Assembly: GCA_965263355.1 (NCBI GenBank) | Contig: CBDHHL010000056.1 | Coordinates: forward strand, 1,184,001-1,248,000 | Source: Leptolyngbyaceae cyanobacterium | GTDB taxonomy: Bacteria; Cyanobacteriota; Cyanobacteriia; Phormidesmidales; Phormidesmidaceae | Reading direction: 5' to 3' | Length of the DNA: 64,000 bases | Shown here: in pieces, positions 26,121 through 63,880 of the stretch | Position numbering within the stretch: the first letter of the stretch is position 1 | How the letters are laid out: the number at the start of each line of letters is the position of its first letter | The notes under the pieces: model-generated | Database searches by the model: none | Seen by the model: the letters and a program-made list of their open reading frames with translations, nothing else | What the model was told of the DNA's origin: nothing | Translations under genes and position numbers: made by a program

Positions 26121-26193
26121 GCTGGTGTAGCTCAGTTGGTAGAGCAGCTGATTTGTAATCAGCCGGTCGTCCGTTCGAGTCGGATCACCAGCT
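26121..26193 (+). tRNA. trnT: tRNA-Thr(TGT)
   Basis: Acceptor GCTGGTG/CACCAGC, D arm TAGCTCAGTTGGTAGAGC, anticodon arm GCTGA-TTTGTAA-TCAGC, T loop GTTCGAGTC; CCA not encoded. Confidence 0.97.
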
Positions 26194-26413
26194 TTTTAAT
26201 GAAAACCTTTCGTGTTAAGGGTTTTAGTCTTCTATATTTTAGACGTCTCTAGAATTTTTAGGTATATTTTTGCTTGATTTTCGACATAAACTAAGCGCTA
26301 AAAGCTTTTCATATCAAAGGTTTTAGGGGAATTAGTACAGGAATTAGCACAGAAATTAGTACAGGCGTAAATCTTCTAAAGGGGGTTAGCCATTATTTTC
26401 AATGAAAATAAGC

Positions 26414-26454
26414 ATTGCTTGACCGACTGACTTAGGATCAGCCGGTCAAGCAAT
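26414..26454 (-). terminator. 17-bp-arm palindrome in island left end (probable minus-strand terminator and/or core-like site)
   Basis: ATTGCTTGACCGACTGA-CTTAGGA-TCAGCCGGTCAAGCAAT; the mismatch is G.U on the minus strand, followed by a U-rich tail. Confidence 0.65.
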
Positions 26455-26653
26455 CTGCTAGCGCAGCCAATTCTGCCTCACCTCAGAAAAGTTCAGTAGC
26501 CATCGCACCACACCTGAGAGTCCGTGATGTTCTAAGTGCTCGCGATTCTAAAGAATTAGGTCCAATTAATGATTGGCTTGGCCTTAATGTCTGGAAGTAA
26601 CAGTCCGCTTAGTCTGAACACGAGATATATCAAGGTCTATTTTCTGCTAATGC

Positions 26654-29600
26654 CTACCAAGGGCTGCCAACTAAAGTAAACCCAGACCAGTAAAAAGGGT
26701 GAGATAGATTCGGAACGGTTTCCTCTCGGTGAAAAACTGCCTGAATACTATCGGGTAGAGGAACATCACCATCAGACCAATAAAGGGTATCAGCCTCAAT
26801 AAAGACCTTACCGTTCAGCATAGCAACTTGAGCTTCCTGTAGGGCTTCGGCCTTGATAGGAACTTCAATAGACTGTAACTGAGTGTAAAACTCAATCATC
26901 AGTGCAGCAGTACCTACGTCTGACACATTCCATAAGCTAGCCAGAGTTGACTTGACACCTGCTTGACTTGCAAATCCAGCAAATCCGAGTTCAGCTTCGT
27001 AGCTGTCACTAGCAGTTTCACAGGCACTCAGTATGAGTAATTCCAAAACTGGATCATGCCACCCCATTTTACGCACTTCAGACAATCGTAGTTTTCGATC
27101 CCATAGTTGGATGTAAGACTTGTCCGGACTGCTACGATTAAACCGAGCATGGGTTGCTAGATGAACAATACCAGTGGGGTCTACATTTCTAGAGTTGCGG
27201 ATGTTGTTTGTGGTGGCAGCCTCTTCCAAAAGAGGCGTGCTATTGCCAAACCAATTATTGATGACACTATCAATCTCAAAAGGAACTGCTGGCAAATTAT
27301 CTAAGTTTTGATCTGGGAAATTGGACATCCCTGCAGGCAGGACAAGAGAATCTTGAATATTCTGATAGCGTGTATCAGTCAAGTTGAGACTAGGCATTAA
27401 CCCCAGACTGTAGTTTTCAATTAGAAATTTCTCGCCATTATGCAAGGCTGCCAGAGGGGTAGCCCGTAACCCCTGATCCATAATAAAAACCAAATTATTG
27501 ATATCATTCCGTTTTAAGTCCTGAACTAGAGGATTAATGAGCCATCCATAGAGTTGCTGGGAAGGGAGAAGATAGTTCTGACTTTGCTCAAAGATAGCCT
27601 CACGGAAGCTACTGGCAGTCTCAGTAACTTCTAAACAAGTGGCACTGGGCACATGCTTGGAAATAACTTCTTCCTTACTGGTGATTACGACCAGAAATAG
27701 CTGATCATCTTCTCGTCCTTTGCAGCCTTCTTGCCTTTGCAGTTGTGCTAACAGAGTCGATAATGAATCTTCACTCTTGAATGTCCAGAGAGTTTCATGG
27801 GAATAAGCTGATTGAGGCTCTGCTTCATCTTCACGAATGTCCTCAATTCGTGCCTGTTCAGAGATAATTTTATCACTGGGAGCAAAGAACGCATATATAA
27901 TAGCAGGCTTGGCCCCCGTAGTATCTTCAATTCGTCGAATGGTATTTTGAGCATCGATAACAGTAGACTCATTTTCACCATTGTCCCCAGAAACATCAGG
28001 TGATAAAGAAGCTTGATAATAGTTTTCATACTGTTGCTGAAAACTATCTTCGACGCCTCTAAGAACAGATTCAATAACATCAGTGTTGTCGTATGTCACG
28101 GTAACAAATGCTGGCTCAGTAGCAGGGTCTAAGCCAATAAAGATATCAGTACTATCATTAATGCTAGTAAGGTCGTCAATAACGTTATCAATAATGGGCT
28201 CTTGCTGGGAGTCAGTAATAATTTGAATATCGCCCTGAGTAAAGGTGTCGAAGAAAGCTTGGGTAGGTAATATAGTGTCGTTGTCAGTTGTGATGGCGAA
28301 TTGGGTTCCATTGAGGCTAGCATCACCAACAGTAAAAGGAACAAATCCGCTTCCACCGTGACGAATAGTGATTGAGCCATTTCCTGATATCCCTGCTGTT
28401 GAGATACTGGCGTCAACGTTGTTGAAATCTGTAAAGCTTCCGCTGGCACGAAAGAATCTTCCAGTTGTAATATCAACCGTTCCACCGATTCCATTGGGAG
28501 CAGTCGTATTGATGCTGGCTATCTGAATATCGCCAATAGGGTCGAGAAACACATCACCTGCATCGCCTATAAGACTACTGGTATTGATGCTATTCACTTG
28601 AATTTCGGTCAATGCCTCAACAGTGACTGAGCCACCATTACCTAATGTGTTTTGTGTACCAATATCTTCTGTAAAAACTCCACCATTTTCAGACTGCAGT
28701 AAGACGTCACCCGAATTAGTTTGGCCACTCGTAGAAATTGTTTCTGTAAAAATTGAGCTAGCCGCATTGATCCTAATGTCTTGACCTTCAGTAGTAATGT
28801 TTCCAGTTTGAACATTACCTGCGGTACTGTTGAGTGCCAGAGGGACATCAAATGCAATGTCACCTAAAACAATATCTTGGCTAGCTGATAAAGAAAAAAT
28901 ATTGCTGGTATTAATTTCCCCTAAAACAGAAAAAAGTGCATTGGATTGAGGTGCTGTTGCGGTTACAAATATTGAGCCAGATCCTGATGCATCAATTTGA
29001 CTATTGTTACCTAAAAGAAAACTTGTGGAATTAGTATCACTTATAGCTGTAGTATCTATTAAAATATTTGCCGTTCCAGTCGATTCAACAACTGTGCCAT
29101 TGCCAACAATTTGAACACCATTATTGTTATTACTAGAGGCATTTCCACCAGTACCTATGATTGATAAATCTCCATCTTGGACACGAAAAATAGTAGCATC
29201 TGACTCAATATTAACTCCGTGATTATTTTCAGTCCCATTTCCCCCTATACCTATGAGAGTAAGAGAACCACTGCCTGCTGTTTCAAGATTTACACCAAGA
29301 TCGGCCCCAGTAATCCTAATCCCATCATTAAAATTACTGCCTCCATCACCACCTGTTCCTTCAATAAGTAAATCACCACCATCTGTTCCAATTCTGATAG
29401 GAGCACCATTATTAAGTATCGTAACCCCGGAGTTCAGACTACTGTTGAGGTTATTGCCAAATCCTCTGAGGGTTAAATTGCCACCATTAATAGTTTCAAC
29501 CGTTGCACCATCGCTAATTATAATTCCTTCGCCAGCATCAGCATTACCGATGCCACCTCCATTGCCTTCAACCAATAGTCCACCTGAGCCTGCTCGCACA

Positions 29601-31444
29601 GTTGACTGTATAATCTGAACACCTCGACTCTGGTTTGTTGAACTGTCACCACCTGTACCAATAATAGTCAGAGCACCATTACTCGTATCTAATAAACTGT
29701 TACTAATAAGTACACCTTTGTTATCTACATCAGAACCTCCTTGACCTGAGAGAGTTAAATTTCCACCTTGGGTATTAATAGAATTATTGATAACATTCAC
29801 GGCTCCTGCATCTATACTGTCAAAATTAGCTGTTAGGGTAACGTCTCCCCCTGCTGTAGTGATATTTGCATCTACATTGATGTCATTATTGGCGTTCGCG
29901 GTTAGTCCTACCCCTGGTGTAGCTATATTGACATCTGCATTGAATGTGATGTTGTTGGTTGCTTGGAGAACTATATCTGACGATGCTGCATTTAAAAAAC
30001 TGGCATCAATTGTGGTTGCTGCACCGGGGCCTAGATCGGTATCAAAGAAAAACTCATCCACATCGTCTAAACCTGTGGCCGATCCTCCAGCTGCAACAAT
30101 CGTAATATCAGTTGGATCTAACAGCAGTAACCCCACCTGACCATTCGCCGCCGCCGCATCGACTTGTCCGTGAAAATCTAGAAACTCTAAACCAGAAACT
30201 TCAACAAAACCTCCATCACCTCCCTGAGCCCCTCCTTGAACGCTAATATAGCCATCAAACTTAGTAGCCTCATCTGCCCAAACAATGACTTGGCCTCCGA
30301 CTCCTTCTACTAGAGCATTTGCCGCAATACTGGAGTCTGCACTGATAAATGTTCGGTTTGCATTGGGAATATTCTCTTGCCCCTGGTAACCTCCTCCAAC
30401 GCGAACCATCCCGCCTCCATTCGTACCAGACGCATCAAGATTTGCTCTAACAAGTCCCACGCGATCTCCTAAAGCTGTAATTACTCCTCCAGTCTCTCCG
30501 ACCGTTGTAATATCTCCTGACATCAAAGTTGTTTCAGGAATTATCGAGACTGCACTGTCAGCAGTTGTAAGCTGAACCGTCCCATCTGAGTTAATCATTA
30601 GGCTGGAAGCATGATTAACGCTGCCACCAGTCAAAGCATCTGGTAAAGACAGGGGATCAAAGGGGATTGTAGAGCCTGATTCTAGTACTGGTAGTTCATC
30701 TATCGTTGCAAGATCCAGGTTAATAAAATTACCCTCTTGGCTGATGCGAACCAATTGCTCACCTGGGACTGAAGCGATTGTGATTATGCCATCCTCAGTT
30801 GAGAGGCTGCCCGTATTGATAATAGTTCCTCCAATGATAGTCAATTGCTGCTCCGCAGTGAGGTCTAAATTTCCTTCATTGATAATGGCTCCAGGGTTCC
30901 TAGCGGTGAAGACAAATGTGCTAGGAGTTCCCAATAGAGAAGCATAGTTATTGTTATCAAATAGATTTACATAATTCTCTCCAAATCCAATTTGGTCTGC
31001 TGTTGTAACAGTAAGTCCACCGCCTATGTTCAAGACAGCATTTTGCCCAAAGAATATCCCGGCTGGATTTACGAGGAAGAGATTGGCATCTCCCCCTGTC
31101 ACTTGAATCAGGCCATCAATGGATGAGATGTTTTCATCATTAATGAGAGTTAGGATATTATTCAGTTCCGGCGTGACAAGAAAATCAGCAACTTCATCCA
31201 CAGGCACGTTGAACTGCTCAAATTCATGAAATAAATTATTCCCATCGTTGGAGTGACGACCGCCCGTAATTCTGTGGTGATTGCCTTCGGTAGTGACAAC
31301 AGAGCTGGTTCCACCCTCGTTAGGAACAATCGGGTTAGCAAAGGTGCTTGTAGCGATGGAACAATCTACCAACAGTGCGGTGATTGTAAGTGCTGGCAGT
31401 AAGCTGAGCGTAAGCCAATTAGTCTCTACTTTAAAGATGCCCAT
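26654..31444 (-). CDS. Filamentous haemagglutinin-domain protein with C-terminal CHAT (caspase-like) domain
   Basis: NLFHEF, LFLVNPAG, GGFVEVSG, LLLDP; CHAT motifs VHLATH, LILSACETA, ASLW.VSD, HPFYWSGFTLVGSPW. Confidence 0.93.
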   Translation of the reverse strand: MGIFKVETNWLTLSLLPALTITALLVDCSIATSTFANPIVPNEGGTSSVVTTEGNHHRITGGRHSNDGNNLFHEFEQFNVPVDEVADFLVTPELNNILTLINDENISSIDGLIQVTGGDANLFLVNPAGIFFGQNAVLNIGGGLTVTTADQIGFGENYVNLFDNNNYASLLGTPSTFVFTARNPGAIINEGNLDLTAEQQLTIIGGTIINTGSLSTEDGIITIASVPGEQLVRISQEGNFINLDLATIDELPVLESGSTIPFDPLSLPDALTGGSVNHASSLMINSDGTVQLTTADSAVSIIPETTLMSGDITTVGETGGVITALGDRVGLVRANLDASGTNGGGMVRVGGGYQGQENIPNANRTFISADSSIAANALVEGVGGQVIVWADEATKFDGYISVQGGAQGGDGGFVEVSGLEFLDFHGQVDAAAANGQVGLLLLDPTDITIVAAGGSATGLDDVDEFFFDTDLGPGAATTIDASFLNAASSDIVLQATNNITFNADVNIATPGVGLTANANNDINVDANITTAGGDVTLTANFDSIDAGAVNVINNSINTQGGNLTLSGQGGSDVDNKGVLISNSLLDTSNGALTIIGTGGDSSTNQSRGVQIIQSTVRAGSGGLLVEGNGGGIGNADAGEGIIISDGATVETINGGNLTLRGFGNNLNSSLNSGVTILNNGAPIRIGTDGGDLLIEGTGGDGGSNFNDGIRITGADLGVNLETAGSGSLTLIGIGGNGTENNHGVNIESDATIFRVQDGDLSIIGTGGNASSNNNNGVQIVGNGTVVESTGTANILIDTTAISDTNSTSFLLGNNSQIDASGSGSIFVTATAPQSNALFSVLGEINTSNIFSLSASQDIVLGDIAFDVPLALNSTAGNVQTGNITTEGQDIRINAASSIFTETISTSGQTNSGDVLLQSENGGVFTEDIGTQNTLGNGGSVTVEALTEIQVNSINTSSLIGDAGDVFLDPIGDIQIASINTTAPNGIGGTVDITTGRFFRASGSFTDFNNVDASISTAGISGNGSITIRHGGSGFVPFTVGDASLNGTQFAITTDNDTILPTQAFFDTFTQGDIQIITDSQQEPIIDNVIDDLTSINDSTDIFIGLDPATEPAFVTVTYDNTDVIESVLRGVEDSFQQQYENYYQASLSPDVSGDNGENESTVIDAQNTIRRIEDTTGAKPAIIYAFFAPSDKIISEQARIEDIREDEAEPQSAYSHETLWTFKSEDSLSTLLAQLQRQEGCKGREDDQLFLVVITSKEEVISKHVPSATCLEVTETASSFREAIFEQSQNYLLPSQQLYGWLINPLVQDLKRNDINNLVFIMDQGLRATPLAALHNGEKFLIENYSLGLMPSLNLTDTRYQNIQDSLVLPAGMSNFPDQNLDNLPAVPFEIDSVINNWFGNSTPLLEEAATTNNIRNSRNVDPTGIVHLATHARFNRSSPDKSYIQLWDRKLRLSEVRKMGWHDPVLELLILSACETASDSYEAELGFAGFASQAGVKSTLASLWNVSDVGTAALMIEFYTQLQSIEVPIKAEALQEAQVAMLNGKVFIEADTLYWSDGDVPLPDSIQAVFHREETVPNLSHPFYWSGFTLVGSPW

Positions 31445-31485
31445 ATGACTTGCGTTTTGAAAGTGTCGGAGAACGATCTCAGTGG

Positions 31486-32265
31486 TTATTCTACGGATGA
31501 ATCAGGCAATGCTAGATATTGCACAGGGAATTTATCGGCAGCTAGTGTCTCGAATCCGCCGTCCACCAGCAGTTGTTGCCATGCCGCCTGCACTACTCTA
31601 GACACCGAGTCTGTGGCCATCGATTCGCCCAATACATTAATTGCGTCGTACCACAAACCATTATCTCTGTAAGCATTGCTGAGAACTGGCGGTGAATCTG
31701 TTTCGGGAATGGGTTGCGTTAGGTTTGCATCAGCAATTCGCGCCACCCAAGCATTGACACGATAAGCATTTGTTTGCCCGACATCAGCTCTACCACCACA
31801 ATAGAGCTTGAACGTCCATAAAAAGGGTTCATTGAGCGGCAAAGCAAACTCTGTAGATGGCAGGGGAATACCGACAAACCCCTTTTGGAGCGTTGGAGCC
31901 ACAAATTCCCATTTAATCTCACTGTTGGTAACGGATTCAGTTTGAAAGCTGCTGATTTTCAACTGTATGCCTACATCCATGTCAGCTGTAATATCAAAGG
32001 GCATGTAGAGCCACAGAGTTGGTTGCTCTGCCAGGGTCAACCCACCAGAGTCGTAATTCCTGGGAGCTAAAGCTTTCATCGGCCTACCGCTATCTTCCTC
32101 TGGACAAGGCCCTCGGTGACCACCGCCATTGGGAGGAGGTGTCGTCGGTGGATAATGCTGATCAGGTAGGGAGGGCAATGCCTTACTAATTTGGACTGCT
32201 GGAGGCGCAAGTAACAGCATGGCAAGGCTTGACCAGGTTACAAAAAGCTTCATAGACAGATGCAT
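31486..32265 (-). CDS. DUF928 domain protein
   Basis: GGGHRGPC, TLAEQPTLWLYMP, NGLWYDA, AWQQLL. Confidence 0.88.
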   Translation of the reverse strand: MHLSMKLFVTWSSLAMLLLAPPAVQISKALPSLPDQHYPPTTPPPNGGGHRGPCPEEDSGRPMKALAPRNYDSGGLTLAEQPTLWLYMPFDITADMDVGIQLKISSFQTESVTNSEIKWEFVAPTLQKGFVGIPLPSTEFALPLNEPFLWTFKLYCGGRADVGQTNAYRVNAWVARIADANLTQPIPETDSPPVLSNAYRDNGLWYDAINVLGESMATDSVSRVVQAAWQQLLVDGGFETLAADKFPVQYLALPDSSVE

Positions 32266-32275
32266 TGCATATCCC

Positions 32276-34417
32276 TCAAATCAGTTTTTTGATAGATTTT
32301 GAATTCGTTGCGATCGCACTCATTCCACCTGCTCCTACTAGCGCTAAGACAAAAGGAACAGTGGGAAGCCACCATCCCTCCACAAATAGGATAAATGTCG
32401 TTCCTAAGCAGGCCACGAGCGTTAATGAATAAATTAATAACTTGGCCTGTTTGTGAAGGCTGAGAATCACGATACTACTGCCATAAAGGGCGATGCTCAA
32501 AATCAAGATGCCTTCGACTGATTGAGAGAGCGTTTGGAGGATGGGGCGATTGTCCAGCACCGCACTGATAAGCTGACTAGTCATGTGGGCATGGACAAAG
32601 ACACCAGGAATTTCGACATTGAAAGGTGTTCGCCAGGAATCTAGTCTACGGATACCTTCAGGATCAAGGCTATCGATGCGGTCCACACCAACCAGCACAA
32701 TGCGATCTCGGATATCGGTTGACTGAATATTTTTAGTTAGAACATCTTCCAGGGAAAAAGCAGATGCGATCGCTCTAGGTGTTCTTGTTGAACGATAGTT
32801 GAGGAGAATTTGTCCTACATCAGTCTCAAGATTTTGATAACCACTGGTACGACGGGTCAAATTCTTCAATACCAGTTCATCAAATGCCAAATATCCCTCT
32901 TCAGTAAATCGACCAGAGATATTGTCAGCTTCCAAATATTTACTGGCTAGCTGAAGACTCAACGCATAGGGGGTTTGGCAATCCCCTAATCCACCAAACC
33001 TTCCCAGGAGTAAATGGCGGCGAACTAATCTGTCCGTATCCGATAAAAAATTGGTAAATCCTACCCGTTCCATATCTGTATGTTTAAGCGGAGGGATTTC
33101 GTTTTCGCCTGCCTGACAAGCCGTAATCAGTTTCTCAGGTGATTGAAGCGTTTGGAGCATAGCTTCACTGTCTTCGGTCTCCATCCAATCTAGATAAATA
33201 TCTAATCCAATCGCTCTGGGCTGATAGGCACTGAGCGTATTAATCAGCTGTTCTAGGGCTCCGTCATAGGCGATTGACTGCTCCTCATTCCGACGCGAAA
33301 ATCCTTGTTTCTCTTGAAAGCGGAGGTCTGCATCGCTAATAGTTACCAAGACCAGTCTTTCATCTGGTGCTTCCAAAGGACGTAGCCTGAACAAAACATC
33401 ATAGGCACTGAGTTCTAATGGTTGTAAGGCACCGACAAAGCGTAAGCTTAGTAATACAGCAGATGTCAAAAGGCCACTTAAACCAGCAATGCGGAGTCGC
33501 TTTGATATCGGAATTGTGCTGGGTTGATAACAGTAATTGCTGATTCTCTGGAAAACGCTTAACTGTTCAGTTAGTGGCTTTTCCGACTGCTTAACCACTC
33601 GTTGAATTAGGGGTAACTGGTCGAGAATGACTTGCGTGTTCTGAGGACGTTGACTGGCAAAGGGAGCCATTAGCTCTTCAATAAAGGCCACTAACTCAGG
33701 TGGTAGCATTGAAGCAGAGTCTTGCCAAATAAGCTTGCCCAAGATGGAAGAAAATTCGGAAGGATTTTTCCCTGTTAATAAATAAACACAGGTACGTCCA
33801 AGTGCAAAGAAATCTGATTGGGCAACGGCCTGACCCTCCATTTGCTCCGTTGGAGTATAACCTTGGGATGCAATTCGAGTTCCAGTCAGATCGCCCAGAT
33901 GGTTTTGCAAATGGGTTGCCGCCGCCGCTTTGATACCACCGAAATCAATCAGCACTAAGGTGCCGTCTTCGTTCAACATAATGTTGGAGGGTTTGATATC
34001 ACGATGCAGAAAACCGTACTGATGCAAATAATGCAAAATCTGTGTGAGCTGTGTGAGCCAGGCCAAGGTTTTGAGGGGACTGACGGGTTGATAGTTCTGT
34101 GCCTTCATCCACTGGCTCAGCGTTACCCCTGGAATCTTTTCCATGACGTAGCCATGGATAGGATTGCTCTGATCATCTACATCACAGCAAAAGTAGCTAT
34201 TGTCATCCGCTTTGGGAATGCCAGGATGATCCAATTGGCTGAGAACTTGAGCTTCCCGCTGAAAAAGTTCAACGGCTTTGGGAAAGTCTTCTAACAGTAT
34301 TTTAAGCACCTTAGTTTGACCATTCACTAGAATTTCCCAGGTCTCACCAAAGCCGCCCTGACCTAACTGTCGGATCAGTTGGTATTGTCCATTGAGCTGT
34401 GATCCTGGTTTAAGCAT
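32276..34417 (-). CDS. Ser/Thr protein kinase with CHASE2 sensor domain
   Basis: LGQGGFG, HRDIKPSN, DFG; then TM, LQPLELSAYD..., D.DRLVRR, PGVFVHA and three TM helices. Confidence 0.93.
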   Translation of the reverse strand: MLKPGSQLNGQYQLIRQLGQGGFGETWEILVNGQTKVLKILLEDFPKAVELFQREAQVLSQLDHPGIPKADDNSYFCCDVDDQSNPIHGYVMEKIPGVTLSQWMKAQNYQPVSPLKTLAWLTQLTQILHYLHQYGFLHRDIKPSNIMLNEDGTLVLIDFGGIKAAAATHLQNHLGDLTGTRIASQGYTPTEQMEGQAVAQSDFFALGRTCVYLLTGKNPSEFSSILGKLIWQDSASMLPPELVAFIEELMAPFASQRPQNTQVILDQLPLIQRVVKQSEKPLTEQLSVFQRISNYCYQPSTIPISKRLRIAGLSGLLTSAVLLSLRFVGALQPLELSAYDVLFRLRPLEAPDERLVLVTISDADLRFQEKQGFSRRNEEQSIAYDGALEQLINTLSAYQPRAIGLDIYLDWMETEDSEAMLQTLQSPEKLITACQAGENEIPPLKHTDMERVGFTNFLSDTDRLVRRHLLLGRFGGLGDCQTPYALSLQLASKYLEADNISGRFTEEGYLAFDELVLKNLTRRTSGYQNLETDVGQILLNYRSTRTPRAIASAFSLEDVLTKNIQSTDIRDRIVLVGVDRIDSLDPEGIRRLDSWRTPFNVEIPGVFVHAHMTSQLISAVLDNRPILQTLSQSVEGILILSIALYGSSIVILSLHKQAKLLIYSLTLVACLGTTFILFVEGWWLPTVPFVLALVGAGGMSAIATNSKSIKKLI

Positions 34418-34495
34418 GGGAAAGTGTGGACAAAGAGAGAAAAAAAAGAAGGGGCGGTAGAGGGAGCAGAAGAAGACAGGTTAGATTCGAGTTGT

Positions 34496-35902
34496 TTATT
34501 TACTTGCATGGTATTTGACATACTTTTCAATAGTTGGTTGGAGCATAAATATTGTAGTATTCTCTCTCTTAGCATTTTCCAAGAGCGATCGCCTTCCCAG
34601 GGAATTAAGAACTGCCATCAACTCTGACCGGCGAATCTCAGATGTAATCCCCGTCAAAATTTCAGGCAAGGTTAATGGGTGGCCCTGATGTGCTAGACAA
34701 TTCATCACATCTTGCTCGATTTCCGAGAGGCGCTTGAATTGCTGATGTAGTAGATACTTAAAATCTCCCAAAAAGAGAGTGTTTTGATCCAGAAATTCAG
34801 CCACACTACCGCCAAATAGATCCTGAATAGTTGAGGCAATAATCCTCAGGGCTAGCGGATTACCGCCATAGGCCGTGACCAGTTCATGCCAACGATCTTC
34901 ATCCAATAACTGCTCATGGGTCAGAATTGCTTTGGCCTCATTACCCAGTCCCTCAACGCGATACGAACGAACTGGCATTGAAGGACCACTAATCCTGGAC
35001 GCCTCCCGCAGTTTTTCCCAACTGGTAAGGATGGTGCAGCTTTGGTGGGTTTCTTCCTCAATCCGCCGGAGTAGTTCGCCGTAACTTTCAAATCCTGCCT
35101 GATATTTACCCGATAATTCACCGATGCTGAGGATAGCCTGCACATCATCAAAGACCAGTAAGCAACGGTGTTCTTGAAGATAGCGAAGTAACTGAGAGAT
35201 GTAATCGGAAGGGGTTTGGAGGGACTGCCCCGCTGGTAGGTAGTTGAGGAAATCTAGAATATCCATCAGAAAGGGCTTCACTGCTGGCCGATTTCTCAAA
35301 GACCGCCAGATCAAGCACTCAAATTCATCTTTAATGGTGTGGGCCAGTTTTGCAGCTAGGGAAGTTTTACCGATGCCGCCTAAGCCGTAGAGTACAATGC
35401 TGCGGCATTTGTCAGTCAAGACCCATTGTTTGAGAAGGGTGATTTCGTGGGTGCGATCGTAAAAAATAGAGATGTCTGGTTGACTATCCCAACTTTCATG
35501 GGCTTTGAGTAATAGATTTGTCGAAACAACAGCTAGTGGTTGACGGTTTTCAATAACTTTAGCCTCTTCCTGAAAACGATACCCCGCTTGCTCCAGTAAA
35601 CGAGGGACCCAGCGCCAATTTTTTACCTGAGCCGTTTGATTAGCTTGTTCGATCAATTGGGTCTCTACTAAATTTTCAACATATCGATACACATGTCTAG
35701 AAAGGCATTGCCGCACAGTATCTGCACCTACGTGGCATTGCTCCGCAATTTTCCCTGGGCTGTAACCGCACAGCAATCCACGCAAATACTTTGCCTCAGT
35801 AGATGTCAGCTCATTGCCCTTAGCAACACCTAAATCTTTATAGAGCTGATCTAATCGCCAACTCTGAGCTGCTTTAGCAAAGTTTTCACAAGGATCTGAC
35901 AT
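34496..35902 (-). CDS. NB-ARC (STAND) protein with N-terminal HTH, no C-terminal repeats
   Basis: LRGLLCGYSP..IA HTH; GLGGIGKT; WRSLRN; LLVFDD; GNPLAL. Confidence 0.9.
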   Translation of the reverse strand: MSDPCENFAKAAQSWRLDQLYKDLGVAKGNELTSTEAKYLRGLLCGYSPGKIAEQCHVGADTVRQCLSRHVYRYVENLVETQLIEQANQTAQVKNWRWVPRLLEQAGYRFQEEAKVIENRQPLAVVSTNLLLKAHESWDSQPDISIFYDRTHEITLLKQWVLTDKCRSIVLYGLGGIGKTSLAAKLAHTIKDEFECLIWRSLRNRPAVKPFLMDILDFLNYLPAGQSLQTPSDYISQLLRYLQEHRCLLVFDDVQAILSIGELSGKYQAGFESYGELLRRIEEETHQSCTILTSWEKLREASRISGPSMPVRSYRVEGLGNEAKAILTHEQLLDEDRWHELVTAYGGNPLALRIIASTIQDLFGGSVAEFLDQNTLFLGDFKYLLHQQFKRLSEIEQDVMNCLAHQGHPLTLPEILTGITSEIRRSELMAVLNSLGRRSLLENAKRENTTIFMLQPTIEKYVKYHASK

Positions 35903-36089
35903 ACTTCAATCCATTACTAAGGCTCTCCGAAGTAATAGTAGTGTAGTCTTTATGGGCTTCCAACCCATGGCTACTCCATAAAAATCCTCCATGCTTACTC
36001 CATGGAATTTGCCGCAGTATGAGGCGACCTATCAATTGATTTTGAATATTCTGAGGTCAGGCTGATGAATTCATTTAAGGATCTTGGAT

Positions 36090-36608
36090 ATGAAAATCCC
36101 AAAATACTTTGATTTAGTTTCAGGTATAGTTTTTGTTGCATTAGTGGGGGCAAGTAAGCCTGCAAGCGCCCAAAATACTGACTACTTACGGGTTACATTT
36201 AATTCAATTGACGTGCATACACTTTTAGAGCCAGACCGTCCCGGTAAAAGGTCAGCCGAGCTTTATGCAAAGGTTAGATTCCCTCAGCATGATTGGCTTC
36301 GCTCAAGTCGTGAGAATGGGAATGCAATACGACCAGGCTGGAGATTTAGTCGAAATGTACAAGTTTCCAATCACCATTCAATTGATATTGAAGTATGGGA
36401 CCACGATAGAAGAGGAAGCGACGATAGAGGTCTTAATATCTCAGTTATCGACCTCAATATTTCAAACTGTTCCTATAGCACTGCTGTGAATGAATTGTCA
36501 GGCAAAGTTATTTATTATGGTCAACCCACCAACAATGGTGGTTGTTTGATCCGTGAACAATTTCGTGGAAGCCATGTGACAGCTGACGTCACTATTGAAG
36601 CCTATTAA
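36090..36608 (+). CDS. Secreted protein with C2-like acidic beta domain
   Basis: Signal peptide (ASA/Q); IEVWDHDRRGSDD; AAGGA upstream of ATG 36090. Confidence 0.65.
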   Translation: MKIPKYFDLVSGIVFVALVGASKPASAQNTDYLRVTFNSIDVHTLLEPDRPGKRSAELYAKVRFPQHDWLRSSRENGNAIRPGWRFSRNVQVSNHHSIDIEVWDHDRRGSDDRGLNISVIDLNISNCSYSTAVNELSGKVIYYGQPTNNGGCLIREQFRGSHVTADVTIEAY

Positions 36609-37167
36609 GCTTATTGACATAGAAAATTTTTAGGAATGGCTCACTCATGTTTAGCATACAACAACTATGTGGCCATTTCCTGTGCTCAACCATAGTGTAA
36701 AATACAAACGATCAGTACATATTTGCAGGAAGTTTTTGAGAGTAACACAACAATTTACTTATAGTGACAATAAGTAAATATCTCTGAGACTAAGTTTCTG
36801 AACTCTCAAGCTGTATAACTATGCCAGACTAAGTAGTGGCCATTTGCAACACTCAAAAAAATGAGAATCGAGAGAAAGCATTGGCTTTTCATTTGCATAG
36901 AAGACTATGTATAGCCCAACAGCTACTAGGCAAAAAACACTGAAATTTATCGGAATAACCTGGAAGAAGAATATCTTTCCATTACAACTGAATATCGAGA
37001 TTTAAAGTCCTATGGATATAGGAGAATTCTCCATAATGATCCAAGGTTTTGTTTATCCAGTCGATAAGTGATAGCCACCAAAGTATCAAGTTGCCGTTGT
37101 CGACTCAAATCTCACAGCGTTCTAAATCAACAGAAAAATCAGCTTCTAAAAACATGGAGGACTTCTC

Positions 37168-37743
37168 GTGAAAATCAAAAATGTTCTGATGGGAGCATTA
37201 TTTAGCTCTCTCCTAGTTTGCCCACCAGCTTTAGCCAAATTCTATTTAGAGAATCAAACTAACACTTCTCTACAAATAGGGTTTGTCACCCTCAGAGGTG
37301 AGCAAATTCGTGGTGATGGATGGTATACGCTTCGACCAGGCGAAGATAGGACTATTGAGGGTAATGACTATCGTGAAAACAAGCGTTATTTCTTAGTTGT
37401 CAAAGATCAATCTTCTGGCAAATATCTACGATTTGGATATGGAAATTTATGTGGTGATCATTGTCTTGCTGAATACGCCGACTCAGATGTGTATATCCCA
37501 CGCAGAGATTTCGACATTGGTTTTAACAACTCATATGTTGCAAATCAATTAAGAAGTGGTTATTGGTCTGCTTTTCAGGAATATGTCTCTAATACAGTTC
37601 GATATTCCGGCGTTTATATTCAGCCCAGCATTAATTGTTACGACAGTAGCAAGCTTTATATCACGGGGATTAGTGGAAACACAGCGAGTCTTAATATGAG
37701 GGTTTGGGATCGTGCAAGTCGTATTTGGGCTTGTGGGAATTAG
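37168..37743 (+). CDS. Secreted DUF1036-like protein
   Basis: GGAGG RBS, signal peptide (ALA/K), GWYTLRPGE motif. Confidence 0.65.
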   Translation: MKIKNVLMGALFSSLLVCPPALAKFYLENQTNTSLQIGFVTLRGEQIRGDGWYTLRPGEDRTIEGNDYRENKRYFLVVKDQSSGKYLRFGYGNLCGDHCLAEYADSDVYIPRRDFDIGFNNSYVANQLRSGYWSAFQEYVSNTVRYSGVYIQPSINCYDSSKLYITGISGNTASLNMRVWDRASRIWACGN

Positions 37744-37828
37744 GTGGATTTAGTCGTATTCCCTACTGAGTTTGGTTGAAGTTGGAAAGTGTATTGTTTT
37801 CTCAAAAAGCAATTAGGAGATTTTTGAA

Positions 37829-40327
37829 ATGACCAAGGTAGAAGCTTCCGGAATAAATCATATTGACAGCCTACTCTACTTGTCTAAATGGGGTGGCCCT
37901 AGAGGTGAAAGTGCATTAATTACTTACAGTTTTCAGAATAATCATGATGAAAGGTTTATTCCACTATCCGAAAGGCAAAGAACAAAAGTTAGAGAGGTTC
38001 TCAATGTTTGGGAAAAAGTGACAAACCTCTATTTTGTTGAAGATTTTACCGGACAAGGAGCTTTAATTATTAGAGGTGATGAAGGCTTTGGAGGAAGCGG
38101 TGGTTTTAATGGTCCTCATACTCGTGGACACGTACATTTGGGTGTTGATCTATTAGGGAATGGAGACTTCTCAGAAGGATCTACCGCTTATTGGGTTATC
38201 TTGCACGAAGTCGGTCACGTCTTAGGACTAAAACATCCAGGTAACTATAATGCTCCCTGTGACGGTCGAGTCACTGGAGAGTTATGTAATCCTGCCCCAT
38301 ATTTACCCTCCGATCAAGACAATCGTCGATACTCAATAATGTCATATGATGCTCATCCGACTGTAAGAGCCGAACCTTCTACACCCATGCTGTATGATAT
38401 TGCAGCTATTCAATATCTATATGGTGCAAAAGGTTTTGCAATTGGAAACAACAGATACTCTTGGAATCCAAATAAGGCATTTGTGAAAACCATCTGGGAT
38501 ACGGGAGGATATGACACTATTTCTGCTGGGAATCAAACCTTACCAGTCAAAATCAATTTAAATCCTGGAACTTTTAGTTCTATTGGTCCTCGCTCGGATG
38601 GAGCAGATATTTCAGCAGTCGATAATTTAGCTATTGCTTTCAACACTGTTGAATATCAAGTTTTGATTGAAAAGGCGGTGGGTGGCTCTAACGATGACGA
38701 AATTATTGGTAACAGTATCAATAATGAAATTCTGGGAGGTTTAGGTAATGACTTTGTTGATTCAAGCTTAGGAAATGATCGTGTGTATGGTGAAAACGGA
38801 GACGATATTCTTTTAGCTGGCGGTGGTAATGACTTTGTCAGAGGTGGAAATGGTAATGATCAACTTTTTGGTGAATATGATTTCCGTTTTACGGGTACTC
38901 CAGATCCTAATTTTGGTCATGACACCATTTATGGTGAAGATGGTAATGACTATATTGACGGTGGCCGAGGAAACGATACTCTTTGGGGTGGTGAACAGAA
39001 TGACACCATCAATGGTCGGGCCGAGAACGATGCTATCTATGGCGAAGGTGGACACGACACTATTTATGGTGAAGATGGCAATGACCTACTCTTCGGTGAA
39101 GAGGACTATAACGTTACTGGAGTGCCGAATCCGCACTTTGGTAATGACCTCATTCTAGGTGGTAATGGGGATGATTACATTGACGGTGGCCGAGGAAACG
39201 ATACTCTTTGGGGCGGTGAACAGAATGACACTATCAATGGTCGGGCCGAGAACGATATCATCTATGGCGAAGGTGGTCACGATACTATCTTTGGCGAAGA
39301 TGGAAATGACCTGCTCTTTGGTGAAGAAGATTATAACGTTACTGGAGTGCCAAATCCGCACTTTGGCAATGACCTCATCTTAGGTGGCAATGGAGATGAT
39401 TATATTGACGGTGGCCGAGGTGACGATACCCTTTGGGGCGGTGAGCAAAATGACACTATCTTTGGCCGGGCTGATAATGATGCCATTTATGGTGAAGATG
39501 GAAACGATACTCTCTTTGGTGAAGATGGAAACGACGTCATTGATGCTGGGAATGGCAATGATTTCGCTGATGGTGGCAATCACGATGACTTTATCGACGG
39601 AGGCGACGGCGACGACTCACTCTATGGAGCCTCAGGCAACGACACCATTCAGGGCTCGACAGGGTACGATCTCCTCAGAGGCGGAGATGGTAATGATCAG
39701 CTCGACGGTGGGTATGGTAATGACAACCTTGATGGTGAATCAGGAAACGATGAACTCCACGGTGGTGCAGATGATGACACAATTCAGGGTGGTCTAGGGC
39801 AAGATACTCTTGATGGTGAAGATGGCAATGACTATCTTCGAGGTGGACAAGACCATGATCGCCTAGATGGTGGCAACGACAGCGACAGATTGTATGGTGA
39901 CGAAGGGAATGATACGCTCTTTGGAGGCTCGGGAAATGACAAGCTCTTTGGCGGTATCGGCAATGACTTATTAGTCGGTGAAACCGGCAACGATATCTTA
40001 ATTGGTGGTGCAGGAGCTGATCAATTCAAATTCAATGCTCTAAATGAAGGCGTTGATCTCATTAAAGACTTCTCTGCAACCGATGGCGATCGCATCGTAC
40101 TATCTAGCAGTGGATTTGGCAGTGACCTATCCCTTGGAAAATTGAACACAGAGGACTTTATCTTGGGCACAGCTGCCAAACGAGAAAGCGATCGCCTCAT
40201 CTATGATTCGGCGACGGGTGTACTCTACTTCGATACTGATGGGACAGGGTCTCTGCAACAGACTCAAGTTGCTCAGTTCGCAAACCGACCCGATCTTAAC
40301 CCGTCTGACATTTGGATAGTTGCTTGA
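37829..40327 (+). CDS. Serralysin-like M10 metalloprotease with RTX calcium-binding repeats
   Basis: HEVGHVLGLKH zinc motif, SIMSY Met-turn, DIAAIQYLYG, many GGxGxD nonapeptides. Confidence 0.93.
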   Translation: MTKVEASGINHIDSLLYLSKWGGPRGESALITYSFQNNHDERFIPLSERQRTKVREVLNVWEKVTNLYFVEDFTGQGALIIRGDEGFGGSGGFNGPHTRGHVHLGVDLLGNGDFSEGSTAYWVILHEVGHVLGLKHPGNYNAPCDGRVTGELCNPAPYLPSDQDNRRYSIMSYDAHPTVRAEPSTPMLYDIAAIQYLYGAKGFAIGNNRYSWNPNKAFVKTIWDTGGYDTISAGNQTLPVKINLNPGTFSSIGPRSDGADISAVDNLAIAFNTVEYQVLIEKAVGGSNDDEIIGNSINNEILGGLGNDFVDSSLGNDRVYGENGDDILLAGGGNDFVRGGNGNDQLFGEYDFRFTGTPDPNFGHDTIYGEDGNDYIDGGRGNDTLWGGEQNDTINGRAENDAIYGEGGHDTIYGEDGNDLLFGEEDYNVTGVPNPHFGNDLILGGNGDDYIDGGRGNDTLWGGEQNDTINGRAENDIIYGEGGHDTIFGEDGNDLLFGEEDYNVTGVPNPHFGNDLILGGNGDDYIDGGRGDDTLWGGEQNDTIFGRADNDAIYGEDGNDTLFGEDGNDVIDAGNGNDFADGGNHDDFIDGGDGDDSLYGASGNDTIQGSTGYDLLRGGDGNDQLDGGYGNDNLDGESGNDELHGGADDDTIQGGLGQDTLDGEDGNDYLRGGQDHDRLDGGNDSDRLYGDEGNDTLFGGSGNDKLFGGIGNDLLVGETGNDILIGGAGADQFKFNALNEGVDLIKDFSATDGDRIVLSSSGFGSDLSLGKLNTEDFILGTAAKRESDRLIYDSATGVLYFDTDGTGSLQQTQVAQFANRPDLNPSDIWIVA
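38867..39541 (+). repeat. Three tandem 225-bp (75-aa) units within the RTX region
   Basis: Units begin FGE(Y/E)D at 38867, 39092 and 39317. Confidence 0.85.
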
Positions 40328-40384
40328 CTTAGTAACGTATTAGATATGAAAGGCCCTGAAATCCTTCCTTAAGAACCCAAATAG

Positions 40385-40428
40385 GTTGAGGCGATCGCTT
40401 TCTGAGTCAATAGAACGATCGCCTCAAC
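40385..40428. terminator. HIP1-containing hairpin after the protease gene
   Basis: GTTGAGGCGATCG...CGATCGCCTCAAC. Confidence 0.6.
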
Positions 40429-40507
40429 TTTAAGTGCGCTCGCTTATTATTAAGGACCTAATGTCTATATAGCTATACAAACTAGAACTTCAGCGAAGCT
40501 CTAGAGT

Positions 40508-40977
40508 CGCTATGCCGATAGAGCAGCTGAGTAATGCTCAGCTCATCTACCACTCGACGAATTCTTTATGAAAGGTTAGTACAAAAATAGGCCTACACGC
40601 ATTTCAGGAAGTTCTGAGTCAAAAAAATCTTAAAACCTTTGCTATACAATACTCGGCTCATCTACTACTCGACGATTTTTTCCCGAAAGATGGCCAAAAA
40701 ATTAGTACAAGAATGGCTCCATGTGGCTTTCAAATAGGTCTGAGTCGAAAAATGCTTAAAACCTCTGCTGTACATAGCGTTTAGCTTTGGAAAAAGCTAA
40801 ACGTCTCAGCCCCACTTGCTATGCTAACGGAGCAGCTAATTAACGGTCAGCTCATCTAGGTCTTGACAACAATTTGTACGAAAAATGCCGCGAAAAATTA
40901 GCACAAAAATCAGTACAATACTTTTTAGGTGTTACAAAAGCTTTGCCAGGCAATGAATTTAGCTTTTGAGTATTTCT
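40508..40977 (+). repeat. Three diverged stacked copies of an element right-end sequence
   Basis: TCRGCTCATCTA...TTAGYACAA...AAAASCTYTGC order repeated near 40538, 40653 and 40847. Confidence 0.75.
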
Positions 40978-41019
40978 TTTGTAATCAGCCGGTCGTCCGT
41001 TCGAGTCGGAGCACCAGCT
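40978..41019 (+). repeat. att site: duplicate of tRNA-Thr 3' half
   Basis: TTTGTAATCAGCCGGTCGTCCGTTCGAGTCGGAGCACCAGCT, 41/42 identical to 26152-26193. Confidence 0.95.
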
Positions 41020-41271
41020 TTTTAATGAAAACCTTTCGTGTTAAGGGTTTTAGCCTTCTACATTTTAGTTAAATCTAAAATTTTGGTGGTTATTTTTACT
41101 GATTTTTCGACATAAACTAAGCGCTAAAAGCCTTTGATGTCAATGGCTTTAGTGAAATCAGTACAGAAATTAGTACAGGTACAAATCTAACAAAAGGATT
41201 TAACCATTGTATTCAATAAAGATAAGCACGGTTTGACCGGCTGACTTTATATCAACCGGTCAAACCGTGCT
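41020..41271 (+). repeat. Diverged copy of the island left-end sequence at 26194-26459
   Basis: Shared blocks TTTTAATGAAAACCTTTCGTGTTAAGGGTTTTAG, TTTTCGACATAAACTAAGCGCTAAAAGC, ACAGAAATTAGTACAGG and the terminal palindrome. Confidence 0.92.
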
Positions 41272-41440
41272 CTAATAAAGCTGATTTTGCCTTGCAAAGT
41301 AGTCAATGTTTAAAACCCTGTGAAGCAAGGACTTCATTCATCTTTGACTATAAGCAATACCTTCGGGAGACGGCATATCAGTGAGATCTCATTCCAAATC
41401 CGGTGCTGGCCCAAAAGAGCAGTTGAGTCAGTTTGCAAGT

Positions 41441-58998: not shown

Positions 58999-59565
58999 CT
59001 AGCTCTCTAGAATCACGTCTTCATAGAGCAGTTCAATCGGAAACTCAAACTCAACGCTGTCGAGCTTAATGCCATCACCGGCTTGATAAGCGGTATACAA
59101 CCACATGCGGCCCTCTCCTCGACGGTAAATTTCAACATCGATTTGGGTGGAGCTGATCAAGACATAGTCTTCTAAGCTGGGCAGGGTTCGATATTCCTTG
59201 AATTTTTTACTGCGGTCCAGGGTTTCTGTTCCAGGAGACAGTACTTCAACAATTAGTTTGGGATACCTAATTGCATCCAAGGCTGTTTTATCTCGTTCGT
59301 CGCAGCTAACGGCTAGGTCGGGGTATCGATAAATGGATGGGGTGATGCTGACTTTGGCATTTGCTATGTTAATTCGACAGCGTTGGGTACGAATATGGGG
59401 ACGTAGGGCTGTAAGTAGGTTAATGGCGATATCGTTATGGGGTAAGGACCCACCGGTCATGGCGATGATTGCACCGTCGACAAATTCGTAGCGCTGTTCC
59501 TGCTGAGGTTCCCAGTCCAGGTAGGCTTCGACAGTCATTTTTTCAGGATACGCGATGGCGACCAT
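58999..59565 (-). CDS. Uma2 family endonuclease-fold protein
   Basis: RYEFVDG...H..IA.N, YPD, PKLIVEVLSP. Confidence 0.92.
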   Translation of the reverse strand: MVAIAYPEKMTVEAYLDWEPQQEQRYEFVDGAIIAMTGGSLPHNDIAINLLTALRPHIRTQRCRINIANAKVSITPSIYRYPDLAVSCDERDKTALDAIRYPKLIVEVLSPGTETLDRSKKFKEYRTLPSLEDYVLISSTQIDVEIYRRGEGRMWLYTAYQAGDGIKLDSVEFEFPIELLYEDVILES

Positions 59566-59630
59566 GGTGCAGTTTATATCCAGCTGATTTTATTATAGAA
59601 ATACGAGTTAGCCGCGTGAGGTGAATTCTA

Positions 59631-60239: not shown

Positions 60240-60287
60240 GGGAAAGAATTCTAATTCGGAGTTCAGAATTCCGATCGGTGCAAACAA

Positions 60288-60328
60288 TCGTTTGATGTAA
60301 ATTCAAGATCTTGAGTTACGTCAAACGA
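60288..60328. other. Long near-perfect palindrome
   Basis: TCGTTTGATGTAA-AT-TCAAGATCTTGA-G-TTACGTCAAACGA. Confidence 0.6.
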
Positions 60329-60371
60329 CAGAGAAAATTATCAGGTTATTTCTACAAGGAATTGAAATTCA

Positions 60372-62725: not shown

Positions 62726-63003
62726 GGCTAAGGCTTTCTAAGCACGTTACTGAACTCTAGTATATCTGGCGTCTCAAACACCCAATCTAGAGGAATACAG
62801 ATGATAAAAATCAAGCCTAAAACCCTCAGCTTGGGAAGCTGAGCATCAGCAGGTCGAGTGCCGGTGAACTATTTGCGATCGCTAGGGGAAATCTGCCATC
62901 AAATTTGCAGTGGGTGTAAATTCACTTGATTCTTGCCTGGGTGTAATTTGGGTGTAATAAAGTTTTTTAGCCTCTGTAAGTATTGCTATAAAAGGATCTA
63001 ATT

Positions 63004-63050
63004 GCTGATTTGTAATCAGCCGGTCGTCCGTTCGAGTCGGATCACCAGCT
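63004..63050 (+). repeat. att site: third copy of tRNA-Thr 3' part
   Basis: GCTGATTTGTAATCAGCCGGTCGTCCGTTCGAGTCGGATCACCAGCT, identical to 26147-26193. Confidence 0.96.
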
Positions 63051-63252
63051 TTCTAGAAAAATCAATAATTTCCCCGACTGGGCAAAGCTTTTGGGCGTTG
63101 TCCAATCGGCGCTTTAGCGCACCCTCTGAAAACACGTTGGACATTTTTGGGTCAGTTTAGACAGGTTGGTCGGTCGATTGGGGTAAAAAAATGGGGTAAA
63201 TCGCTACTATTAAGTAGAACGCTAGTTCTACTATTGGAGTGCATGATTATGT

Positions 63253-63880
63253 ATGCCAGATCGTCCCGTCGGAAATCCTCAGGGGGAACCGTCTATGACT
63301 AAAGCCCAGGCGGGGTATGTAACGGTGTATCAGCCAGGAGATGTGCTGGTGCCGATACAGGATTATAAAAAACAAGGATTGCTGAAGGGACAGCAGTATA
63401 AGGTGGTTTCGGTTGACCGAGAAAATCAGCGGCTAGTAGTCGAGACAACCGGTGGTCAGGTGATGGGAGTTGATCCATGGCGATGTCCGTTGAAGTCGGT
63501 GTATGTGGGACAGGAGGTTCAGGTAGCTATTGGCGATCAGCTGCGATGGACTAAAAATAACCGAGCACATAAACGCCACAATGGTCAGCGGTTTACGGTT
63601 CAGCATATGGGGGCCGATGGCCTCGCTCAGATTATTGATAGTGAAGGGAACGCGCAACAGATAAGTCTTAGTGGTCAGCAGTATGTGGATTATGCCTGGG
63701 TCAGTACGACCTAGGGCAGTCAGGGCAAAACAGCGGATCGGGTGATGGCTTTGATGGATAGCACGACGACAAATCGGGAATCTTTCTATGTGACAGTGTC
63801 TCGTGCCAAGCATTGTTTGGCGCTATATACAGCTAATAAAATAGAGCTAGCGCAGTGGGCTGAGGTGTCGAAGGCGAAGG
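63253..63880 (+). pseudogene. Fragment of TrwC/TraI (MobF) relaxase-helicase C-terminal region
   Basis: GDQLRWTKN, DYAWVSTT-stop-GSQGKTADRV, FYVTVSRAK; in-frame TAG at 63712 and no relaxase N-terminus. Confidence 0.85.

Follow-up and report, generated by a model that had tools for sequence, protein, structure and literature searches.

Why should the ends of genomic islands stacked behind a tRNA gene carry palindromes built from the two halves of the anticodon arm of that same tRNA? The question is raised by a 64,000 nt stretch of a Leptolyngbyaceae cyanobacterium genome (GenBank assembly GCA_965263355.1, contig CBDHHL010000056.1, positions 1,184,001–1,248,000; hereafter the window, in whose coordinates positions are given), where the gene for tRNA-Thr(UGU) is followed by two islands. 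A first-pass annotation, made from the letters alone, had noted four such palindromes, each with a 7 nt spacer. The palindromes belong to the docking arms of integrase-less cassettes that are stacked at tRNA-Thr, and are conserved there. The reading preferred here, with a probability of about 0.5, is that they are accessory dyads of putative core-type integrase half-sites, whose spacers would bar a crossover with the tRNA.

Palindromes built from the halves of the tRNA target

The anticodon arm of the tRNA-Thr gene reads TAGAGCAGCTGA (26140–26151), TTTGTAA (26152–26158) and TCAGCCGGTC (26159–26168). The left half is referred to as half-site B, the right half as half-site B′, and the 7 nt of the anticodon loop between them as the overlap. 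Palindromes of the right half lie in the left ends of both islands, and two palindromes of the left half lie in the right end of the first island (Table 1). All four were recovered where the first-pass annotation had placed them, and the sequence reads as it had described. The 12 bp arm of the distal left-half dyad is identical to tRNA positions 26140–26151 at 12/12 bases, as had also been claimed. The left arm of the proximal left-half dyad (40828–40858) may alternatively be written (CG)GAGCAGCTAA. Both left-half dyads are imperfect, with CA in the right arm where the complement would require GC. The annotation had spoken of ‘both left ends’ and ‘the right end’ as if one pattern applied throughout; this is correct for the first island but not for the second, whose right end differs in kind.

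The concern that such half-site matches are common by chance is not borne out by shuffled or simulated controls. With up to one mismatch, TCAGCCGGTC has 10 matches in the 64 kb against 2.5 expected, and with up to two mismatches TAGAGCAGCTGA has 14 against 5.2; none of 100 shuffles reached the observed number in either case. Dyads occur in the window at a spacing of 7 nt exclusively (two right-half and two left-half), with none at spacings of 3–6 or 8–12 nt, and neither kind appeared in any of 300 windows generated from a first-order Markov model. The four palindromes are real and non-random. Since both copies of each kind of dyad are homologous, the number of independent features is two rather than four.

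Organization of the cassette ends

The tRNA 3′ half, beginning at the anticodon loop, is present three times (direct-repeat family D6, with repeats at 26147, 40973 and 63004), thus two islands lie in tandem (Table 1). The tRNA 5′ half together with the first 3′-half copy constitutes attL of island 1. Direct repeats of part of the tRNA bound the islands both in the window and in relatives, as in elements that integrate at tRNA genes, and the contigs of four sequencing runs all break at these repeated tRNA halves.

The left end (P′ arm) runs from the tRNA half through a hairpin, a box, two or three TTAGYACA repeats at a 12 bp period and ~66 bp of further sequence to the right-half dyad. In island 1 the hairpin (~26203–26226), the conserved box and three repeats of 12 bp period (26332–26363) precede the dyad in that order. 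The two left ends of the window are homologous over ~310 bp, dyad included, and belong to one repeat family. The right end (P arm) of island 1 is made of units that each contain a left-half dyad, except for the middle unit, which has the right arm of the dyad alone. Its TTAGYACA repeats lie at 40576, 40702, 40898 and 40910, and it terminates in a half-site designated C, TTGAGTATTTCT (40966–40977). At the sequence level, arm-type TTAGYACA repeats are found in both arms and always on the + strand (26332–26363, 40576, 40702, 40898–40917 and 41158–41177).

Ends of this plan, here called A-type, recur in relatives. An A-type P arm of 190–450 bp has one to three units, each composed of a left-half dyad, ~45 bp and two TTAGYACA, and is followed by a crossover region with half-site C (TTGAGCATTTCT), TTTGTAA and the tRNA 3′ half. 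An A-type P′ arm of ~300 bp has two to five TTAGYACA, ~66 bp and a right-half dyad. Where two cassettes adjoin, the junction resembles an attP site, ...TTGAGCATTTCT-TTTGTAA-TCAGCCGGTC..., and its left half-site retains GAGCA of the tRNA left half at an unchanged distance from the loop. The conserved attP-like module of the ends consists of the arm repeats (TTAGTACA) and the dyads, the shared ends measure 0.5–0.75 kb, and each dyad is ~60–80 bp from the arm-repeat cluster of its arm. The right end of island 2 is of a different, B type: it has no left-half dyad, and its C half-site still has GCTGA.

A family of integrase-less cassettes

An exact-pattern scan for the right-half dyad, covering genomes of 185,579 species, returned 55 loci. 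Four of these are homologous left ends from marine cyanobacterial metagenome-assembled genomes (MAGs); the others are unrelated and mostly G+C-rich hairpins, with one (L015) being a terminator. Of 172 genomes belonging to one cyanobacterial order, 12 have the left end according to BLAST. Across a 401-genome sample of the phylum the only true match was in an already known genome (G001), and nine further matches were marginal (26–46 nt, E 5e-5 to 9e-4). All left-end copies sit at tRNA-Thr(UGU), in arrays of 1–5 cassettes, and in one genome five consecutive cassettes follow the tRNA gene. No A-type end was found at any other tRNA among these relatives. A metagenome scan for the arm-repeat pair gave 22 loci, of which just two are true left ends; locus L181, for example, is unrelated. 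In a Microcystis MAG (L043:1475–1535), a full tRNA-Thr 3′ half, in reverse complement, meets a 17 nt 3′ half head to head; the junction spans the true loop, TTTGTAA, and forms a perfect palindrome of the right half with 17 bp arms, and no tRNA is called there.

The sequences enclosed by these ends are unrelated to each other. Cargos in relatives include caspase/FGE-sulfatase, trypsin-like, WD40, GNAT and MatE proteins, among others, and at least a dozen unrelated cargos lie between the same ends. Neither island of the window contains an integrase, as PF00589 had no match among the 30 window open reading frames (ORFs) searched with Pfam. Likewise, no PF00589 match was present in 60 ORFs of the cassettes and flanks of relatives.

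Conservation of the dyads

Conservation was assessed over 29 distinct tRNA-half sites. The left-half dyad is kept in 12/14 A-type right ends, with 18 dyads in total; two right ends have no intact dyad. The centre of the dyad lies 133–136 bp from the crossover in 10 of the 12 dyad-bearing right ends, with one at 122 bp and one at 335 bp. In the latter (L160, G449:C11), a ~200 bp insert with an ORF between the arm repeats and the crossover has shifted the dyad from 135 to 335 bp. The consensus of the left-half dyad is tcgctatgatga TAGAGCAGCTGA ttaacgg TCAGCTCATCTA gttcttgac, and its right arm has CA, where pairing would need GC, in 16/18 dyads. Among 22 A-type left ends, the right-half dyad is intact in 13 and degenerate in 2, and the remaining 7 end before the dyad; one additional intact copy is on a metagenome contig. 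Alignment of 15 copies shows no gaps across the dyad, and GACCGGCTGACTT is nearly invariant; apart from the tRNA half, no block of the P′ arm is better conserved. In the right arm TCAACCGGTC predominates, and as a result one pair is unpaired in 10/15 copies. Spacers vary within limits: left-end dyads retain CTT, and most proximal right-end dyads have TTAACGG.

The relation of the arms to the target extends beyond a shared stem. Arms match B at 12/12 and B′ at 10/10 positions, i.e. the same motif as the core half-sites. Every type of half-site, whether B, C, B′ or an arm of either dyad, has a G and an A at positions −10 and −9 counted from the spacer. Taken together with its flank, the left-half dyad agrees with tRNA positions 10–31 at 18/22 bases, a likeness that covers the B side of the target in full and not the stem alone. 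The proposal that the palindromes form part of the element ends and resemble the target, with the 7 nt geometry of the tRNA crossover retained, is upheld, and these features are conserved in relatives.

The dyads could also be sites of a different DNA-binding protein, for example a regulator or an excisionase-like directionality factor, that happens to have the anticodon-stem dyad in common. Conserved dyad symmetry is typical of dimeric regulators, and an excisionase-like ORF lies beside the integrase of a relative (weak DUF1233 match, E 0.002). However, the 12/12 and 10/10 identity to two target halves and the exact 7 nt spacing point to a protein that reads the target, and the two kinds of dyad differ at the outer five positions just as B differs from B′. 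Such a site is considered very unlikely.

Sequence versus structure

A palindrome may be maintained for its sequence or for the hairpin it can form. In a 16-pair helix model, covariation scored 0.126 against 0.123 in shuffles, a value reached by 196/500 shuffles and hence not above them, and paired cells made up 78.8 % against 77.6 % in shuffles. Rfam reported nothing above threshold except the tRNA, and ARAGORN called no tRNA at the dyads. As conserved positions are non-complementary and covariation does not exceed that of shuffles, it is the sequence that is kept, not the hairpin. Sequence and geometry are concluded to be constrained as in a protein site, and not for a hairpin as such.

The first-pass annotation had offered structured RNA or single-stranded DNA as one explanation, which finds no support in either covariation or Rfam. 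In its most specific form, the dyads would mimic the tRNA anticodon arm, as RNA or single-stranded DNA, and act on a tRNA-binding factor. Both kinds of dyad do contain the GCTGA/TCAGC anticodon stem around a 7 nt loop, and the plus-strand loops of left-end dyads start with CTT. Against this, the stems have conserved mismatches and do not covary, and neither ARAGORN nor Rfam detects a tRNA or another family at the dyads; mimicry is highly improbable.

A promoter reading of the TTGACA in the right end was considered and rejected, as its distance from any −10-like hexamer does not fit and a promoter scan found none.

Cargo boundaries and mosaic left ends

The dyads had been proposed to bracket the cargo, and in position they nearly do. 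At the left end, no more than ~40 bp separate the dyad from the inner limit of the conserved sequence; for the outermost right-end dyad, the distance to the edge of the right end is ~12 bp at most. The more specific suggestion that cargo boundaries fall at the spacers fails: conserved sequence continues ~40 bp past the left-end dyad in most copies and ~12 bp past the right-end dyad, thus the boundaries do not map to the spacers. At the left end the dyad is the last well conserved block ahead of the cargo.

Several pairs of copies change abruptly in identity at the left-end dyad. Copies G002 and G001_d are 94 % alike to the right of the dyad and 70 % to the left; they share cargo, with identities of 92–100 % per 50 nt window from the dyad rightwards and 54–64 % in the 100 nt leftwards. 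Copies G001_a and G440 are 93 % identical to the left and 21 % to the right, with divergence beginning inside the spacer, and G001_e and G444 are 83 % identical to the right and 63 % to the left. At the right end, the cargo ends of G434 and G001 (L129 and L056) are 92–95 % identical, and the former has one unit where the latter has two. The difference is 182 bp, exactly one unit, from dyad to dyad.

These breaks raise the possibility that the dyads are secondary recombination sites, at which cargo would be captured or exchanged, either by the integrase or by a different recombinase. The three breaks at the left-end dyad, the unit deletion ending at two dyads and the enclosure of at least a dozen unrelated cargos by the same ends would all be expected from cassette exchange of this kind. 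However, left ends are mosaic over their whole length. In 14 copies of a 220 bp segment (window 26199–26430 and homologues), pairwise identities correlate poorly between the three thirds (r = 0.33, 0.35 and 0.10), and the nearest neighbour switches between thirds in most copies. The left ends thus recombine or convert among themselves, and since they are mosaic throughout, homologous recombination among repeated ends suffices to explain the decoupling of cargo and left end without site-specific exchange at the dyads. Additionally, spacers differ among copies, whereas tyrosine recombinases normally require matching overlaps, and the conservation past the left-end dyad is not what exchange at the spacer predicts. 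Secondary sites of this kind are quite unlikely. The cassette exchange put forward in the first-pass annotation therefore retains the decoupling across the left-end dyad in its favour, and the mosaic left ends and differing spacers count against it; taken as a whole, the interpretation given there is partly supported.

A bolder version carries a similarly low probability. The dyads would be working pseudo-target sites, where an integrase acting in trans cuts and rejoins at the inner edges of the arms and so allows unrelated chromosomal or foreign genes to be loaded between two standard docking arms and stacked at tRNA-Thr. If true, this would amount to a tRNA-anchored, integron-like cassette system of filamentous marine cyanobacteria with cargo-exchange sites of its own.

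Integrases at the array and elsewhere

Beyond island 2 the window contains the left end of a third element, of integrase type. It comprises a hairpin, a TTGGACATTTTTGGGTCA box, GGGGTAAA repeats and, from 63245, some 15 initial codons of an integrase whose reading frame is broken following ...GGAACCGTC. An intact syntenic integrase in G002 (L079:1465–2634, − strand) has 389 amino acids with Arm-DNA-bind_2 (PF12167) and Phage_integrase (PF00589) domains. Paralogues with 28–45 % identity are located directly 3′ of tRNA-Gly(CCC), Gly(UCC), Thr(CGU), Pro(GGG) and Pro(CGG) in G434, G001 and G440 (L111–L121), each with its own short direct arm repeats just upstream of the start codon. In G434, two different integrase elements stand in tandem at tRNA-Pro(GGG).

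The paralogue closest to the integrase of the array has tRNA-Gly(CCC) as its target. In the B-type right end of island 2, TCAGCTTGGGAAGCTGA (62826–62842) is the reverse complement, over 17 nt, of the anticodon arm of tRNA-Gly(CCC) in L111, and after it comes GCTGA-GCA-TCAGCAGGTC, which is nearly identical to the Thr right half-site (window 62825–62855). Matches of 9-mers to tRNA-Gly(CCC) within L111 were discarded; they lie inside a TPR gene and are at chance level.

A possible accessory role

In the preferred reading, a lambda-type integrase with an arm-binding domain would be supplied in trans, its N-terminal domain occupying the arm repeats and its core-binding domain the core-type half-sites around a crossover in the anticodon loop. 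The extra dyads would each hold a pair of integrase molecules and help to build or regulate the recombination complex. As the spacers of the dyads differ from TTTGTAA, strand exchange with the tRNA would not be expected there. Duplicated core sequence is the most likely origin of the dyads. In favour of this reading are the conservation of the dyads in sequence and position, their derivation from both halves of the target, and the presence in a relative, at the far end of the array, of an integrase whose family has an arm-binding domain.

Several observations weigh against an accessory role for integrase-bound dyads. A matching integrase is the first difficulty. The one at the end of the array has arm repeats unlike those of the cassettes, is decayed in the window and in G434, and has no match in the G449 locus. 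With Pfam, no integrase for the TTAGYACA arms was found in the cassettes of the window or in the cassettes and flanks of relatives examined, a search that did not extend to the two true metagenomic left ends. Among the PF00589 matches in the genomes of three relatives, one locus is near a tRNA-Thr(UGU) half, and it is a B-type integrase with other arm repeats. Paired arm repeats were absent outside the tRNA-Thr arrays in 10 genomes, except for a lone match in G001 (C45) that is taken as chance, and two scans of viral contigs gave zero matches. Six paralogous integrase loci were examined over 12–40 kb each, with the far end mapped for the tRNA-Pro(GGG) element of G434 alone; that element has no tRNA-half dyads at either of its ends, thus such dyads are not shared by the integrase family as a whole. 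The dyad is also missing from one third of left ends (7/22), and so is not indispensable for their persistence. Finally, both left-end dyads of the window resemble terminators on the minus strand, with stems of 18 and 20 pairs and T-rich tails, and the minus-strand RNA folds more stably in 12/15 right-half copies.

The last of these points could mean that the left-end dyad halts minus-strand transcription from the cargo towards the tRNA gene, its likeness to the tRNA being a matter of descent. In three copies the stems are moreover lengthened by 6–10 bp of differing sequences. The tails in relatives, however, are T-rich without being T runs, and the strand bias is mostly one inherited mismatch; an argument for minus-strand RNA from strand-specific G·U pairs was dropped for that reason and since other copies show the opposite pattern. 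Right-end dyads, which are not flagged as terminator-like and whose stems have two conserved mismatches and no tail, would be left unexplained. Together with covariation no higher than in shuffles and the lack of an Rfam family match, this makes a terminator improbable, to about the same degree as secondary recombination sites.

Alternatively, the dyads may be relics, i.e. diverged duplicates of the core or the tRNA that stem from tandem P-arm units or old junctions and are carried without a role. The P arm does consist of tandem units, one to three in number, and G434 differs from G001 by exactly one unit lost between two dyads. The left-half dyad with its flank resembles a diverged 5′ part of the tRNA, and the loss of the dyad from 7/22 left ends would be unremarkable for a relic. 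Nevertheless, the arms, the 7 nt spacing and the position 133–136 bp from the crossover are kept over 12 genomes in which the cargo is unrelated and the surrounding ends are 49–93 % identical, and the left arm plus CTT is the best-conserved block of the P′ arm. Relics are considered unlikely, and somewhat less so than a terminator.

Features of the window

The positions of the features are collected in Table 1. Island 1, which extends to 40977, encodes a TPS/CHAT protein, a DUF928 protein, a CHASE2 kinase, an NB-ARC ATPase, a C2-like protein and an RTX metalloprotease. Island 2 (40978–63008) has ~20 genes of mixed kinds. Four Uma2-family (PF05685) genes lie within its final 4 kb (58999–62725), and the end of a Uma2-like gene also adjoins the right end in G434 and G001. 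Directly past the tRNA 3′ end, and within the left end of each cassette, is a short hairpin (26203–26226 and 41029–41052; AAAACCTT...AAGGGTTTT). Relatives have AAGCCTT...AAGGCTT at the same place, which suggests that the hairpin trailing the tRNA arrives with the cassette.

Table 1. Features of the tRNA-Thr(UGU) array, in window coordinates
Feature	Position	Strand	Basis or remark
tRNA-Thr(UGU), target	26121..26193	+	ARAGORN; Rfam tRNA 68.6 bits; sequence
tRNA 3′ half, first copy, from anticodon loop	26152..26193	+	Direct-repeat family D6
Left end (P′ arm), island 1	26194..26480	+	Homologous to 41020–41300 and to left ends in 12/172 genomes
Right-half dyad, island 1: GACCGACTGA-CTTAGGA-TCAGCCGGTC	26421..26447		Palindrome extends 26414–26454
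Cargo of island 1	26654..40327		ORFs and Pfam
Right end (P arm), island 1	40509..40977	+	Tandem units of ~125–190 bp with dyads and TTAGYACA
Distal left-half dyad: TAGAGCAGCTGA-GTAATGC-TCAGCTCATCTA	40519..40549		Sequence
Proximal left-half dyad: CGGAGCAGCTAA-TTAACGG-TCAGCTCATCTA	40828..40858		Centre 135 bp from crossover
tRNA 3′ half, second copy	40978..41019	+	With flanks, attP-like junction of islands 1 and 2
Left end (P′ arm), island 2	41020..41300	+	TYAGTACA repeats at 41158, 41170
Right-half dyad, island 2: GACCGGCTGA-CTTTATA-TCAACCGGTC	41235..41261		Palindrome extends 41225–41271
Right end of island 2, different ‘B’ type	62825..63008	+	GGGTGTAA repeats at 62912, 62939, 62950
tRNA 3′ half, third copy	63009..63050	+	Direct repeat
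Left end of third, integrase-type element	63051..63300	+	Comparison with intact syntenic integrase in L079

Comparison with known systems

The cassette family is a compact natural case in which genes are shuffled at a tRNA hot spot although no integrase resides there. With more than 12 unrelated cargos, many of them signalling or defence-like, it makes testable what mobilizes such cassettes and how cargo enters between standard ends. Cis-mobilizable elements (CIMEs) are bounded by att sites, have no integrase of their own and occur in tandem with an integrase-bearing element. The cassettes of the window are likewise att-bounded and without recombination or transfer genes. In contrast to CIMEs, the neighbouring integrase element has other arm repeats and is truncated or decayed, and up to five cassettes stand in one array, their cargo being unrelated.

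As in integrons, the cassettes seen here stand in arrays, are poor in promoters, have no recombinase of their own and are bordered by imperfect palindromes. The integron attC is itself the crossover site and is recombined as a folded single strand, its structure being conserved and its sequence not. Here, by contrast, the crossover is marked by the tRNA-half repeat, and the dyads are conserved in sequence without significant covariation.

The closest parallels in site architecture are lambda-type attP sites at tRNA genes. Shared features are the direct repeat of the tRNA 3′ part from the anticodon loop, the 7 nt overlap flanked by the anticodon stem, the direct arm-type repeats in both arms and a related integrase with an arm-binding domain. 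The present system differs in that the cassettes have no integrase and in that each arm has a full extra dyad of core-type half-sites, set at core spacing and taken from one half of the target. A limited search of literature excerpts on CIMEs, on attP sites with anticodon and core- and arm-type sites, and on tRNA sublocation gave no description of target-half dyads.

Tycheposons of Prochlorococcus are described as integrase-carrying elements with tRNA-specific tyrosine recombinases next to tRNA genes, in which successive integrations push older elements inward and leave partial tRNAs and fragmented integrases (bioRxiv 10.1101/2020.12.28.424599). The tRNA-adjacent recombinases, tandem integration, partial tRNAs and fragmented integrases described for them are also encountered here; unlike tycheposons, the cassettes are integrase-less and share an end module of 0.5–0.75 kb. 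The string ‘palindrom’ has 0 occurrences in the text of that preprint (bioRxiv 10.1101/2020.12.28.424599).

A mechanistic precedent is provided by TnpI and the IRS of Tn4430. There, the accessory motifs DR1–DR2 beside the core bind extra recombinase and steer synapsis and the order of strand exchange (PMC2847244). Extra copies of the core motif of a recombinase can thus act as accessory sites, which is the mechanism proposed here. In Tn4430 the accessory motifs are single direct repeats adjoining the core of a resolution site, whereas the dyads of the cassettes are inverted pairs with a core-like 7 nt spacer, 135–290 bp away, in an integration site with arm-type repeats. If the dyads do bind integrase, this attP would build or regulate its recombination complex through extra copies of the core site, beyond arm sites and host bending proteins. 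Such an arrangement may matter in cyanobacteria and could possibly be used in the design of directional integrase tools.

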